This document shows positions 1,817 through 11,633 of a stretch of 11,633 nt of DNA, piece by piece; the first letter of the stretch is position 1, and every line of letters begins with the position of its first letter. This DNA is from a virus. The position numbers were made by a program, and so were the translations under genes. The notes under the pieces were generated by a model, which did not search any database, was not told where the DNA came from, and saw only the letters and a program-made list of their open reading frames with translations. The stretch lies in UHGV virus genome UHGV-0141986; one strand, 5' to 3'.

Positions 1817-2065
1817 TTCTTCCATTCCGGGACGTTACACTGTTCAGGCACCTTATAAAGCGGGTGCCGGGATTGGCGTCCTGGAAATGTTATCGGCGAT
1901 ATATGACGCGCCAGCGTTTTTTTTATCGTCTGCGTCTGCGCACACCCAAATTATGGTGGGCTGGACGGGGGCACCGAAAGGTGCGCCGGTTTCCGATAAC
2001 GCCGGTTACGCCAACCCCGTTCAGTTCACCACCAGCGAAATTCACTGTTATCGGAGGCTGCCATC

Positions 2066-6172: not shown

Positions 6173-7168
6173 GTGACCGTGAGAGCACTACTGACCCCTG
6201 AAATTGCCCCGCGTATGGGGATCGTATTGTTCAGACCAGGTTCAGAGCTGATGCCCTTGTTTATGCAGGGGCGTGTCCTGCTGGAGCCTGAGCCGGAACG
6301 TTATTCATCTTTCGCCAGTGGTGCCGTTCCGGCGGCATCACAACCGCTGGCGGATGATCCTGCCGTTCGGGCCGTGTTCCGCAATGAGGCAGTGATCCGT
6401 CGTGCTGGTGGCGTGGAATGTCTTGAAAGCTGGTTACTTCGTGAAAAAGGCTGCCAGTGGCCTCATTCCGACTGGCACAGCGAGAATATGACAACAATGC
6501 GACACGCTCCGGGCGCAATCCGTCTGTGCTGGCACTGCGATAACCAGCTGCGCGATCAGTTCACGGAACGGCTGGAATCAATGGCAACGGATAACTGTGC
6601 CCGCTGGGTGTTGTCTGTTGTGCGTCGGGATCTCGGTTTTGATGACAGTCATGTTGTGACAATGCCGGAACTGTGCTGGTGGCTGATTCGTAATGATCTG
6701 GCGGATGCCTTACCGGAAAGTGCAGCCCGTAAGGCACTGAGATTACCGAAGCCTGTTGTGCCGTCTGTTACCCGGGAAAGTGACCTTGTGCCTTCGGTTC
6801 CTGCCACCAGCATCATCCAGGATAAGGCGAAAAAGGTGCTGGCGCTGAAAGTGGATCCGGAGTCGCCGGAGTCTTTTATGTTACGCCCAAAACGTCACCG
6901 CTGGGTTAATGAAAAGTACACGCGCTGGGTTAAGACGCAGCCGTGCGCATGTTGTGGAAAACCTGCTGATGATCCCCACCACCTGATAGGCCACGGTCAG
7001 GGGGGAATGGGTACAAAAGCGCATGACCTTTTTGTGTTGCCTTTGTGCAGAAAGCATCACGACGAGCTGCATGCGGATACCGTGGCATTTGAAGAGAAGT
7101 ATGGCTCCCAGCTGGAGCTGATATTTCGTTTTATCGATCGTGCGCTGGCAATAGGCGTACTGGCGTAA
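6173..7168 (+). CDS. DUF968-family prophage protein (YdfU-like) with C-terminal Cys/His cluster
   Basis: 331 aa. C-terminus CACCGKPADDPHHLIGHGQGGMGTKAHDLFVLPLCRKHHDELH. Position immediately upstream of Q matches ydfU in K-12 Qin (from memory). Start may be GTG 6173 or GTG 6179. Confidence 0.7.
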   Translation: MTVRALLTPEIAPRMGIVLFRPGSELMPLFMQGRVLLEPEPERYSSFASGAVPAASQPLADDPAVRAVFRNEAVIRRAGGVECLESWLLREKGCQWPHSDWHSENMTTMRHAPGAIRLCWHCDNQLRDQFTERLESMATDNCARWVLSVVRRDLGFDDSHVVTMPELCWWLIRNDLADALPESAARKALRLPKPVVPSVTRESDLVPSVPATSIIQDKAKKVLALKVDPESPESFMLRPKRHRWVNEKYTRWVKTQPCACCGKPADDPHHLIGHGQGGMGTKAHDLFVLPLCRKHHDELHADTVAFEEKYGSQLELIFRFIDRALAIGVLA

Positions 7169-7181
7169 GTGGAGAACGAGC

Positions 7182-7934
7182 ATGAACCTTGAAGCCTTAC
7201 CAAAATATTACTCCCCAAAATCTCCAAAATTGAGTGATGACGCACCGGCGACAGGCTCTGGTGGTTTAACGATTACGGATGTGATGGCTGCGCAGGGGAT
7301 GGTGCAATCGAAAGCACCGCTTGGGTTTGCCTTATTCCTGGCAAAAGTTGGTGTTCAGGATCCTCAGTTTGCGATTGAAGGTCTGCTCAATTACGCGATG
7401 GCACTGGATAACCCGACATTGAATAAATTGAGTGAAGAAACCCGGCTACAGATTATTCCTTACCTTGTGAATTTTGCCTTTGCTGATTATTCCAGGTCTG
7501 CGGCAAGTAAGGCTCGTTGTGAGCATTGTGCTGGTACTGGATTTCATAATGTATTGCGCGAAGTGGTGAAACACTCCAGAAGCGGGGAATCTGTTATCAA
7601 AGAAGAGTGGGTGAAGGAACTATGTCAGCATTGCCATGGTAAGGGAGAAGTCAGCACAGCGTGCAGAGGGTGTAAGGGTAAAGGTATTGTCCTGGATGAA
7701 AAAAGGACCCGGCTTCATGGCACACCTGTTTATAAGATTTGTGGGCGTTGCAATGGAAAACGGTTTAGTCGTTTACCAACCACACTGGCGCGGCATCATG
7801 TCCAGAAGCTGGTACCGGACCTGAGTGATTATCAGTGGTATAAAGGATATGCAAATGTCATTGATAAACTGGTTACAAAGTGCTGGCAGGAGGAATCTTA
7901 CGCTGAAGCACAATTGAGAAAGGTGACGAGATAA
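7182..7934 (+). CDS. Late-gene antitermination protein Q (QuuQ-like, phage 21/82 type)
   Basis: 250 aa with multiple Cys pairs (CEHCAGTG, CQHCHGKG, CRGCKGKG, CGRCNGKRF). GGAG at 7171-7174 precedes ATG 7182. Followed by a promoter-plus-terminator leader, as expected for Q. Confidence 0.85.
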   Translation: MNLEALPKYYSPKSPKLSDDAPATGSGGLTITDVMAAQGMVQSKAPLGFALFLAKVGVQDPQFAIEGLLNYAMALDNPTLNKLSEETRLQIIPYLVNFAFADYSRSAASKARCEHCAGTGFHNVLREVVKHSRSGESVIKEEWVKELCQHCHGKGEVSTACRGCKGKGIVLDEKRTRLHGTPVYKICGRCNGKRFSRLPTTLARHHVQKLVPDLSDYQWYKGYANVIDKLVTKCWQEESYAEAQLRKVTR

Positions 7935-7955
7935 GTGATTTTCGCCGAAGATGGC

Positions 7956-7983
7956 GACGTGATGCTTGCATTTTCAAAAAATA
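7956..7983 (+). promoter_or_regulatory. Candidate late promoter PR' (-35 TTGCAT 7956-7961, 16-bp spacer, -10 TAAAAT 7978-7983)
   Basis: Located directly downstream of Q and about 55 nt upstream of a strong intrinsic terminator, the arrangement expected for a Q-modified late leader. Hexamers identified by eye. Confidence 0.35.
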
Positions 7984-8038
7984 TGGATAAAATTTTTTCA
8001 ACGATGGGCTTTGTATACCCGAAGTTAAGAAAAAGTAG

Positions 8039-8066
8039 AAAACCCGCTGATGAGCGGGTTTTTGTG
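8039..8066 (+). terminator. Rho-independent terminator (tR'-like)
   Basis: AACCCGCT (8041-8048), loop GATG, AGCGGGTT (8053-8060), followed by TTTGTGCTTT. Confidence 0.65.
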
Positions 8067-8355
8067 CTTTAAATAGGGTAATAGAGATGTTGAATCTCAT
8101 TACGGGATTCATGTTAGTTTACTTATTATTTATCGGGTGACTTTGTTTTTTGCCTGATGTTTAAAATGTTTTCTTCCAGTACAATGTCCATAGATACAAT
8201 GAGTTTGCTTATTACATTATTAGCAGAGCTATTAAGGTCAAAGTACAGCATAAGCTTTTAAAGCCAATCAACCAGTCATCAAGACAGACGGGTTTATTCA
8301 TGAAAACTCTCCATGTTTGATTCGATGGGGCTTGAAGTTAAAGCTTTAATATAGC

Positions 8356-8568
8356 TCATGAAAGGTAAACATTGGCAGCTGATGGTCCACGCAGACCATT
8401 TATCCGGCAAAATTCCACGCGTAATCCGGTGGTAATTTCTTCTGCATCGCGGAGATTGAGCGCTGAAACATGAAGCTGGACATCGATACGACCATCGGAT
8501 GGGGTTATAAGACCTTTGCCGCTTTTGCCGTCAAAGGTTTTGAGAATTCCTGTCATTTTACGGGACAA
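8356..8568 (-). CDS. cspF: Cold-shock-like protein CspF/CspH type (lacks canonical RNP motifs); TTG start
   Basis: [70 protein letters not shown]. First codon on the minus strand is TTG (8568-8566), preceded by TAAGGA; first ATG is at 8556. Divergent from cspB as in Qin. Confidence 0.85.
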
Positions 8569-8867
8569 AAAATTCCTTAATACTGATAACTTGGCGCACT
8601 ATACACACGTTCCTGAAGAAAGCTATAGTTTTTTGATGGGGTTGAAGATGGCTGGATGTCTAAAATAAACATTGCTTCATATGTTCAACTATGCGTTAAT
8701 GATTGCGTCGGTTTGAAGAACAGACGATATACGAAGTAGTTTACTAAAGCAGTTCTCATTTCAGGTGTTATTCACTTATTCCTTCTTTGAGTCTCTCCAA
8801 TTAAGTACGAAGTCGTTTCTGTTATACAAGCCATTTATGCCGAAAGGCTCAAGTTAAGGAATGTAGA
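8569..8867. promoter_or_regulatory. Divergent cspF/cspB promoter region and long cspB 5' UTR
   Basis: 299-bp AT-rich intergenic region between divergent csp genes. Long structured 5' UTRs are a known property of cold-shock mRNAs. TAAGGA SD 7 nt before cspB ATG. Individual elements not resolved. Confidence 0.35.
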
Positions 8868-9083
8868 ATGTCAAATAAAATGACTGGTTTAGTAAAATGG
8901 TTTAACGCTGATAAAGGTTTTGGCTTTATTTCTCCTGTTGATGGTAGTAAAGATGTGTTTGTGCATTTTTCTGCGATTCAGAATGATAATTATCGAACCT
9001 TATTTGAAGGTCAAAAGGTTACCTTCTCTGTAGAGAGTGGTGCTAAAGGTCCTGCAGCAGCAAATGTCATAATTACTGATTAA
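8868..9083 (+). CDS. cspB: Cold-shock protein CspB-like (CspA family)
   Basis: [71 protein letters not shown] with RNP1 (KGFGFI) and RNP2 (VFVHF) motifs. Confidence 0.9.
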
Positions 9084-9364
9084 AATTCATAGTTTGTCTG
9101 TATACGATAACGAAGAAGGCTGATGCCTGAGTGGAGATACAGACAGAGTGGTGAATATTGGATCTCTTTAATAAATAGTAAGGAGGTCCAATACATGAAA
9201 CAATGGCCAGCATATTTGGCAATAACTTAATCAGGAAAAGTATGCTAACCATTGTGGTGAAGTGCAGGTTTGCTGCATGAATAGTTTTACAGCAGAAGCT
9301 AACTGCTGGCATAGCAAAACAAAGTGCGTAAGTGGATGACTCCCACAAAAAGTACCACAATATT

Positions 9365-9391
9365 AAACCCGCTCAGGCGGGTTTTTTATTA
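9365..9391 (+). terminator. Rho-independent terminator
   Basis: AAACCCGC (9365-9372), loop TCAG, GCGGGTTT (9377-9384), then TTTTATT. Partly symmetric, so it may also serve the minus-strand small gene at 9447-9617. Confidence 0.6.
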
Positions 9392-9446
9392 TCTGCTTTA
9401 AATATGTTATTAAAATATAAAAAATACTTGTTACGAATAAAATCAA

Positions 9447-9617
9447 TCAAGCTACAGCTTTAAGATTTGTCTGGAATACTTTGTTGCAATGAGGGCAGAT
9501 CAAAAGGGCACCTTTTTGTATTCTTGAAAAACTGTGTTCTGACTCTTGGGTGCAGTTTGGGCAGGAACATTTAACGAGATAATTACGGCGTGATTTTGAG
9601 TCTTTACGTTCTGACAT
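9447..9617 (-). CDS. Small zinc-ribbon protein (56 aa, two CxxC pairs); possibly YnfQ/YmcF-like cold-shock-associated small protein
   Basis: MSERKDSKSRRNYLVKCSCPNCTQESEHSFSRIQKGALLICPHCNKVFQTNLKAVA. AGGAA SD 7 nt upstream of ATG at 9617-9615. Track start 9668 adds an implausible extension. Family assignment is from memory. Confidence 0.55.
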   Translation of the reverse strand: MSERKDSKSRRNYLVKCSCPNCTQESEHSFSRIQKGALLICPHCNKVFQTNLKAVA

Positions 9618-9835
9618 AGGCTTTTCCTGTATAAATGGCCGTATACAGTACACTAAATATGAAAACATATCTCGTATTATTATTTAACATATGATTTTCT
9701 TTTAAAATAATTACCCACATTTTTAATGTGTCTGTTTTTTAGCGCCGTTGAGAACAACGTTTGCTATAAAAACTACCCCATAGACTCCGATCTTTTCAAA
9801 CATATTGCACCATCTGTGTACATCGGGGTGAGGAT

Positions 9836-10051
9836 ATGAAATCAATGGATAAGTTAACAACAGGTATCGCCTATGGCACATCGGCTGGTAATGCTGGTTT
9901 CTGGGCATTGCAGTTACTCGATAAAGTAACTCCGTCACAGTGGGCTGCAATCGGTGTGCTGGGTAGTCTGGTATTTGGCTTGCTGACGTACCTGACAAAC
10001 CTTTATTTCAAGATTAAAGAAGACAAGCGTAAGGTTGCACGGGGAGAGTAA
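9836..10051 (+). CDS. Class II holin (phage-21 S-type pinholin) with dual-start motif MKSMDK
   Basis: [71 protein letters not shown]. Two transmembrane segments and a charged C-terminus. Starts at Met1 and Met4 mirror the S21 antiholin/holin pair. GAGG precedes the ATG. Confidence 0.9.
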
Positions 10052-10055
10052 TTCA

Positions 10056-10154
10056 ATGACACAAAACTATGAACTGATTGTGAAAGGGATCCGCAATTTT
10101 GAGAATAAAGTTGCGGTAACTGTAGCTCCTTTTCCTTCTCCGGCAACAAGTTGA
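10056..10154 (+). pseudogene. Truncated ydfR-like gene (33-codon N-terminal fragment)
   Basis: MTQNYELIVKGIRNFENKVAVTVAPFPSPATS-stop. The first ~24 residues match the YdfR N-terminus as I recall it; the sequence then diverges and terminates. GGAG at 10043-10046. Confidence 0.4.
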
Positions 10155-10340: not shown

Positions 10341-11368
<1,028 letters not shown>

Positions 11369-11633
11369 ATTAATATTAAATCGGATTATTTTTAGCGCTG
11401 AATGTGAAATTTAAATAAAAAGGACTCTTCCATGAGTCAAAATCCTTGAAATCTTAAGGGTAAGATAAAAGGTCATTAGACAGAATGACACGTTTTATTA
11501 ATAAATAAAGCTATTGTTTCATTCGTGTGTTTTTCTTTACAAAAGTAATCCTTGCTATGGTTGGTTAATCATGCGTTAACACTGATGCCCCCTCCCAGGA
11601 GCAGGTTCGTGTAAAAACTATGCTTAATAGCAC

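Follow-up and report, generated by a model that had tools for sequence, protein, structure and literature searches.

Among the systems closest to the locus analyzed here are the late control region of phage lambda and the Qin prophage of Escherichia coli K-12. The former comprises the antiterminator gene Q, the late promoter PR', qut, a σ70-dependent pause, the terminator tR' and 6S RNA. At lambda PR', AACGAT at positions +1 to +6 is a -10-like element at which σ70-bound RNA polymerase pauses, letting Q load. In Qin of strain MG1655, the annotated gene order is ydfT - ynfS - cspF - cspB - ynfU - essQ - ydfR - rrrQ - rzpQ. The DNA under study is UHGV virus genome UHGV-0141986, a stretch of 11,633 nucleotides (the window), and within it the region from Q to the lysis genes, which holds the divergent genes cspF and cspB. 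Very probably, this region belongs to a Qin-type lambdoid prophage of E. coli and makes up its late-control and lysis part, in which the usual cargo slot is filled by an AT-rich cassette with leftward ynfS and cspF, rightward cspB and leftward ynfU. The arrangement is already known, being that of the K-12 Qin reference annotation, and there is nothing new in the gene order. Genes, order and orientation agree with K-12 Qin, the nucleotide identity over 7100-10126 is 94.5%, and the TTG start of cspF, the PR' block and both terminators are shared. The window differs from K-12 by one T fewer in each of two homopolymer runs, the spacer between the Shine-Dalgarno (SD) sequence and the TTG of cspF and the spacer of PR', and by Val9Leu in CspF. 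The early region diverges more strongly, as the DUF968 protein of the window is only 56% identical to YdfU. The elements framing the cargo are as follows.

7182..7934, plus strand: antiterminator Q (QuuQ/YdfT type, λ-Q family), 250 amino acids, PF03589
7966..7993, plus strand: PR'-type late promoter, -35 TTGCAT at 7966-7971, 16-nucleotide (nt) spacer, -10 TAAAAT at 7988-7993
7998..8008, plus strand: 11-mer block TCAACGATGGG, identical in all six of lambda, K-12 Qin, SfV, mEp460, a Stx2k phage and the window
8039..8066, plausible on both strands: intrinsic terminator tR' of the short Q leader, stem CCCGCT/AGCGGG at 8043-8058 followed by a T-run
8067..9823, no strand: cargo (moron) slot between tR' and the holin ribosome-binding site, set by homology breakpoints
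9836..10051, plus strand: class II (P21-type) holin gene essQ, PF04971, E = 1e-33
10341..10874, plus strand: lysozyme gene, PF00959
10871..11368, plus strand: gene of an Rz-like DUF2514 protein, PF10721

Q belongs to the λ-Q family. The protein matches Pfam family PF03589 with E = 1.5e-53, is 35% identical to lambda Q in BLASTP (E = 5e-42) and finds the lambda Q structures 7UBM (E = 1e-37) and 4MO1 as its best matches in the PDB. It is 92% identical to the ydfT product of K-12 and differs from lambda Q by an extra CxxC zinc-module insertion. PR' was identified by homology to lambda and sibling phages because a σ70 consensus scan missed it. It could be aligned with lambda PR' and is conserved in K-12 Qin, SfV, mEp460 and one Stx2k phage. 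The original prediction had correctly proposed a PR'-like promoter after Q, albeit 10 nt too low at 7956-7983. AACGAT at 8000-8005 is the counterpart of the σ70 pause-inducing element of lambda PR' and would act as a pause site; at the sequence level, a -10-like element is present just after the promoter. By homology, late transcription would start at about 8000. The terminator, which had been predicted to follow the end of Q at 8039-8066, was confirmed by the stem with its T-run and the RNA fold of 8000-8070 on the plus strand (-25.5 kcal/mol, z = -4.2), and the SfV record annotates an equivalent terminator. On the minus strand, tR' folds with -14.4 kcal/mol and was also flagged as a terminator by a pattern scan (tail CTACTTTTTC). 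The hairpin may therefore stop cspF-ynfS transcripts from continuing antisense into Q. Without Q, the late transcript would be a leader of roughly 65 nt that stops at tR'.

The likeness to the lambda region thus comprises a promoter just after Q, the identical block TCAACGATGGG, a terminator and lysis genes downstream. There are also differences. The leader is shorter (about 65 nt versus about 194 nt in lambda), the holin gene is farther from the start site because of the cargo (about 1.84 kb versus about 0.6 kb), and the DNA between -35 and -10, to which lambda Q binds, is different. A 45-codon open reading frame (ORF) on the plus strand (7935-8072) overlaps PR', the leader and tR'. It begins with GTG in the window and with ATG in K-12, SfV and mEp460, and small hypothetical ORFs are annotated in the matching stretch of the Stx2k phage record. 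This ORF is probably not a gene.

That the DNA between tR' and the holin gene is a slot for cargo was revealed by comparison with 35 phage records in which Q plus the leader is matched at 90-95% identity; SfV, mEp460, Ayreon, 15 Stx2c-converting phages and one Stx2k phage are among them. In most of these records, including SfV, mEp460 and the Stx2 phages, homology ends at window position 8066, the last base of tR'. Up to this base, the Q-PR'-tR' cassette is 93-95% identical in SfV, mEp460 and the Stx2c and Stx2k phages. In mEp460, homology resumes at 9824, 12 nt before the holin ATG, and the slot is therefore 8067-9823. SfV carries one ORF and a DNA methylase gene in the 1.6 kb between tR' and S, mEp460 three ORFs including a methylase gene (2.2 kb), and the Stx2k phage several ORFs, three tRNAs, stx2AB and iraM (4.2 kb). 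Since sibling phages harbor other cargo at this place, a distance of about 1.8 kb between tR' and the holin gene is normal in this phage group. What sets the window apart is the orientation of the cargo. Cargo genes of SfV, mEp460 and the Stx2k phage mostly point in the direction of late transcription, while three of the four in the window are antisense to it. The GC content over 8000-9950 is 0.34-0.44, compared to 0.46-0.56 for Q and the DUF968 gene and 0.48-0.52 for the lysozyme and Rz genes. Downstream of tR', holin, lysozyme and Rz genes all lie on the plus strand from 9836 on. For discovery the arrangement matters little; its value is corrective, with regard to the cspF start codon and to the recognition of a normal cargo slot. 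The boundaries 8066/8067 and 9823/9824 are useful for the annotation of cargo in this phage group, in which the slot at this position holds Shiga toxin genes in siblings with the same Q-PR'-tR' cassette. The contents of the slot in the window are listed below.

8212..8301, minus strand: ynfS, small protein gene, 29 amino acids, PF23697 YnfS, E = 1.2e-19, annotated in K-12
8356..8568, minus strand: cspF, 70 amino acids, TTG start at 8568-8566, SD sequence AAGGAA at 8578-8573, AGGA and TTG separated by five nucleotides (N5), Pfam CSD
8598..8603, minus strand: predicted -10 element TATAGT of cspF, in the conserved block ACTATAC at 8598-8604
8672..8700, plus strand: predicted cspB promoter, -35 TTGCTT at 8672-8677, 17-nt spacer, -10 GTTAAT at 8695-8700, AT-rich block upstream at 8660-8669
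8707..8867, plus strand: 161-nt 5' leader of cspB (cspA-type thermoregulator), Rfam RF01766
8868..9083, plus strand: cspB, 71 amino acids, ATG start, 98.6% identical to K-12 CspB
9084..9365, plus strand: conserved structured 3' region of cspB, roughly 280 nt, RNAalifold consensus with 53 pairs in 9 helices
9365..9384, no strand: second intrinsic terminator, between the convergent genes cspB and ynfU, -15.5 kcal/mol (plus) and -15.4 kcal/mol (minus)
9447..9617, minus strand: ynfU, 56-amino-acid zinc-ribbon protein, PF23499, E = 1e-30, annotated in K-12 and the closest genomes

CspF possesses a cold-shock domain (PF00313, E = 8e-21) and is 97% identical to its K-12 counterpart. It begins with MSRKMTG and has non-aromatic residues at the RNP1 and RNP2 positions, as is typical of the CspF/CspH clade, with GKGLITP and VQLHV in place of the aromatic motifs KGFGFISP and VFVHF of CspB. 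As originally described, the two genes are divergent with a gap of 299 bp (8569-8867), and the holin gene follows about 1.8 kb after the terminator (start at 9836, 1770 bp past it). The notion of a shared 299-bp regulatory region holds insofar as the core promoters of cspF and cspB lie back to back, about 70 bp apart, but is overstated for the rest. The Rfam model RF01766 matches 8707-9146 (model positions 1-428) with 156.7 bits against a gathering threshold of 78 (E = 1e-41), spanning leader and coding sequence, and 161 of the 299 bp are therefore transcribed cspB leader. From its position, the cspB promoter would start transcription at 8707, where this match begins. An alignment of 21 cspF/H-type intergenic regions from at least eight genera exposed the invariant or nearly invariant blocks, namely the cspF start (CAA on the plus strand) with its SD sequence, ACTATAC, the AT-rich block followed by TTGCTT, and TGCGTTAATG, which includes the cspB -10 element. 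ACTATAC is the largest such stretch in the region upstream of cspF. The position of TATAGT implies a cspF leader of about 23 nt. A thermosensing cold-shock leader thus exists only for cspB and not for cspF, so that the pair is a cold-shock pair by name while only one of its members has the corresponding leader.

The host-type character that had been ascribed to the pair is supported. The chromosomal cspH-cspG locus of E. coli and cspF/H-cspB/G-ynfU clusters of other Enterobacteriaceae are divergent like the window genes, with 267-308 bp between the start codons. On the cspF/H side, these loci share with the window the TTG start, an AAGGAA SD sequence and the -10 element TATAGT, and on the cspB/G side the ATG start, the -35 element TTGCTT and a long leader. 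By contrast, cspG of E. coli is followed by ymcF-ymcE-gnsA and lacks the structured 3' region and the ynfU gene found after cspB of the window. Divergent cspF-like/cspB-like pairs occur in Kosakonia, Kluyvera, Enterobacter, Yokenella and other genera, often with a ynfU-like gene behind them. Within the 8-kb loci of those clusters, no match to Qin-type Q, holin, lysozyme, DUF968 or Rz proteins was found; clusters of this kind are located in Kosakonia, Kluyvera and Enterobacter (GTDB loci L007, L009, L013, L015-L017, L042, L044, L045 and L055). In view of such clusters in other genera without matches to the tested phage proteins, host-type module is a fair description. In Citrobacter, the same csp cluster adjoins DUF968 and lysozyme genes. 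Sequence comparison suggests that the cspF-cspB-ynfU core is of host origin and that the Qin cargo may have been captured from a chromosomal cluster.

The locus is widespread. Of 5426 complete E. coli genomes, 1410 (about a quarter) contain at least 80% of 7900-9900. Phages 2H10, PhiR63_1, PhiR42_1 and HannyBb contain all of 7900-9900 at 95-98% identity, and phage Tritos contains 77% of it, from ynfS to the holin gene. These deposited phage genomes carrying the module indicate, indirectly, that this layout does not preclude a functional lytic cycle. In 116 copies from IMG/VR, cspF is antisense to Q and to the holin gene wherever these were found and, except for one contig, antisense to the lysozyme gene.

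From these features we infer promoter activity at PR', Q-dependent read-through, as is standard for such a layout, and any effect that read-through may have on the csp genes. In a lysogen, the cassette, flanked by the two hairpin terminators, would be expressed from its own signals. The conserved promoter elements, the terminators and the cspA-type leader are all present in the window. In addition, YnfS and YnfU proteins were detected in uninduced K-12 (10.1101/511675), which suggests that the cargo may be expressed on its own. The gene cspB, with a σ70 promoter and the 161-nt cspA-type thermosensing leader, would be cold-inducible, while the TATAGT -10 element, the short leader and the family-wide TTG start of cspF should result in low-level translation. 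Both terminators (8039-8066 and 9365-9384) are predicted to function in both directions and would insulate the cassette. Upon induction, Q would engage RNA polymerase paused just past PR' at about position 8000 (AACGAT, as in lambda) and render it terminator-resistant. The late transcript would then pass tR', the cargo and the second terminator, about 1.8 kb in all, and continue into essQ, rrrQ and rzpQ. It would cover cspB in the sense direction and the other three cargo genes, ynfS, cspF and ynfU, as antisense RNA. It had been anticipated that a transcript from PR' to the holin gene must cross cspF antisense and cspB in the sense direction. This layout is right, but it is generic and already known; ynfS and ynfU, which are also antisense to the path, and the terminator at 9365-9384 had not been considered. 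In the literature searched, no study of Qin late transcription was found.

It is conceivable, though improbable, that the lysis genes are driven by a promoter inside the cargo instead of by read-through from PR'. A candidate at 9684-9711 (TTAACA, 16 nt, AATAAT) is located 125 nt upstream of the holin start codon. With 10 of 12 consensus positions it is the best match in the region, and a version matching at 9 of 12 positions is retained in K-12. Such a promoter would spare RNA polymerase the passage across two terminators and three antisense genes. On the other hand, promoter-like sites were no more numerous in the consensus scan of 7800-10100 than in shuffled sequence (7 found versus 7.7 expected), and the candidate is situated in AT-rich DNA which is also the likely promoter region of ynfU on the other strand. 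The holin gene of mEp460, although its product is 92% identical, is not preceded by the site because homology with this phage starts only at 9824. Moreover, constitutive synthesis of holin and lysozyme would be harmful to a lysogen.

A similarly low probability is assigned to the idea that the cassette belongs functionally to the late programme. Translated from the Q-modified transcript, CspB would serve as an RNA chaperone or antiterminator in support of late transcription or translation, for instance at low temperature, while the late antisense transcript would silence cspF, ynfS and ynfU. Viral contigs with an identified cspB have it divergent from cspF, and since cspF is antisense to Q and the holin gene, cspB is co-oriented with the late operon. 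That CspA-family proteins can act as transcription antiterminators is a statement of Bae et al. (2000), as cited in PMC9765468. However, overproduction of CspB, CspF or CspH did not significantly alter read-through of a terminator in a published assay (PMC9765468), and the three proteins had little effect on the baxL-bax and gdx mRNAs, where CspB accumulated poorly (PMC11648934). An involvement of the csp genes in late antitermination was rejected on the basis of these overexpression assays. Two further observations argue against a late role of the cassette: the slot is filled with unrelated cargo in siblings that share the Q cassette, and the cspF/cspB/ynfU cluster exists in other genera without the tested Qin-type phage proteins nearby. 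On the link between CspE and Q-mediated antitermination attributed to Hanna & Liu (1998), nothing was found in the literature searched, and it was not used as evidence.

The start codon of cspF deserves particular attention. The TTG at 8568-8566 and its good SD sequence (AAGGAA, four bases upstream) had been described correctly. Not correct was the statement that K-12 cspF starts with ATG, as the coding sequence of MG1655 in RefSeq (b1558) starts with TTG in the context AAGGAATTTTT-TTG, and the K-12 paralog cspH is likewise annotated with TTG. In GTDB, with one genome per species, a scan was made for AGGA, 4-11 nt and NTG TCN CGN AAR ATG ACN GG, the first base of the start codon being free. 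It revealed 44 matches of the CspF/H family, 41 of them full length, from at least 10 genera (Escherichia, Shigella, Salmonella, Citrobacter, Kluyvera, Enterobacter, Kosakonia, Phytobacter, Yokenella, Klebsiella and Pseudescherichia). All 44 have TTG at AGGA-N6-TTG spacing. ATG starts among the pattern matches belong exclusively to unrelated proteins (none of the 44 family members). The divergently paired cspB/G-like genes, by comparison, start with ATG in 33 of 33 cases. The 116 viral-contig copies of cspF in IMG/VR gave 115 TTG, one CTG and no ATG starts, with an N6 spacer between SD sequence and start in 111 and an N5 spacer in five. TTG is the ancestral, family-wide start of cspF and not a change, which is the very outcome that the original prediction had named as speaking against itself. 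The only local difference between the window and K-12 is the spacer, which is N5 instead of N6. The exact 91-nt start region (8535-8625) was present in 13 of 1378 genomes with the locus, and the window thus contains a minority allele of an ordinary gene. A derived change from ATG to TTG in this strain, with lower translation than in K-12, is next to impossible and was rejected: TTG is truly the start codon of the window gene and generally a weaker initiator than ATG, but K-12 cspF and cspH share it, the homologs are all but uniformly TTG with no ATG among them, and the actual difference to K-12 is a shorter spacer that recurs in five viral copies.

Several points weigh against the interpretation given above. 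The start-codon survey covers proteins with a Ser-Arg-Lys-Met-Thr-Gly N-terminus and an upstream AGGA, and family members with another N-terminus are outside the sample. PR' activity, Q-dependent read-through and the positions of the transcription starts are deduced from homology. PR' agrees with the σ70 consensus at 8 of 12 positions and is not listed by the consensus scan, and its spacer comprises 16 nt versus 17 nt in K-12, SfV, mEp460 and the Stx2k phage. Furthermore, the integrity of the prophage is in doubt. The closest genome, YDC107, agrees with the window piece by piece at 98-100% identity. Compared with it, two stretches are missing from the window: 588 bp at 10126/10127, whereby ydfR is truncated, and 1525 bp at 11579, whereby cspI-ymcF-ynfN-gnsB are lost. 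An IS3 element is present in the head-tail joining region of a genome whose 7900-9900 stretch is 100% identical. The prophage may thus be defective or cryptic, and late read-through would then be of little practical importance. As an aside, the breakpoint at 11579 comes after a sequence resembling the cspB promoter (TTGCTA...ATGCGTTAAC); of the cspI module, only upstream DNA with this motif is left.

The comparison of genera also drew attention to the DNA downstream of cspB. Across genera of the Enterobacteriaceae, conservation over 9084-9365 amounts to 75-84%, versus 64-75% for the coding sequences. In the consensus structure, 94.7% of the cells are paired, compared to 28-43% in controls in which the partners were slid. 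Compensatory changes were detected at 12 pairs, and the covariation score of 0.279 exceeded that of the shuffles (0.184), none of 500 shuffles being as high. Helix 1 is the counterpart of the terminal hairpin of the Rfam cspA model, but it has a large conserved loop and no U-tract. A permissive Rfam search of 7935-9840 matched no family to the helices after helix 1, gave only sub-threshold matches at chance level besides the cspA model, and found no known small RNA (sRNA) in the leader, the intergenic region or the 3' region of cspB. Since the single-sequence fold of 9225-9360 is no better than that of shuffles (z = -0.47), the support for the structure comes from the comparative analysis. The region may be a regulatory element of the 3' untranslated region (3'UTR) or a 3'UTR-derived sRNA. 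That it is an undescribed element of either kind, and that the combination of TTG and AGGA-N6 is a selected translational throttle in the CspF/CspH clade rather than a neutral relic, is a tentative proposal, more doubtful than not. Both suggestions are specific neither to the window nor to the arrangement from Q to the lysis genes. The RNA structure may deserve a follow-up of its own.

An 11-codon ORF (MKQWPAYLAIT) is located on the plus strand at 9196-9231 behind a nearly perfect SD sequence, TAAGGAGGT. Its K-12 version, MKQWLAYLAKS, is unannotated, and no counterpart outside the E. coli copies was found in the other genera compared. Two further small ORFs, read by eye at about 9253-9291 and 9288-9350, both overlap conserved helices. 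Coding as an explanation for the conservation of the 3' region was rejected, as these two ORFs vary in length and their changes are not mainly synonymous, while the 11-codon ORF is confined to the E. coli copies. Apart from the late region, two adjacent Rfam matches at gathering level are located in the early part of the prophage, isrK at 1848-1924 (plus strand, 61.7 bits) and the C4 antisense RNA at 1949-2036 (plus strand, 82.8 bits).

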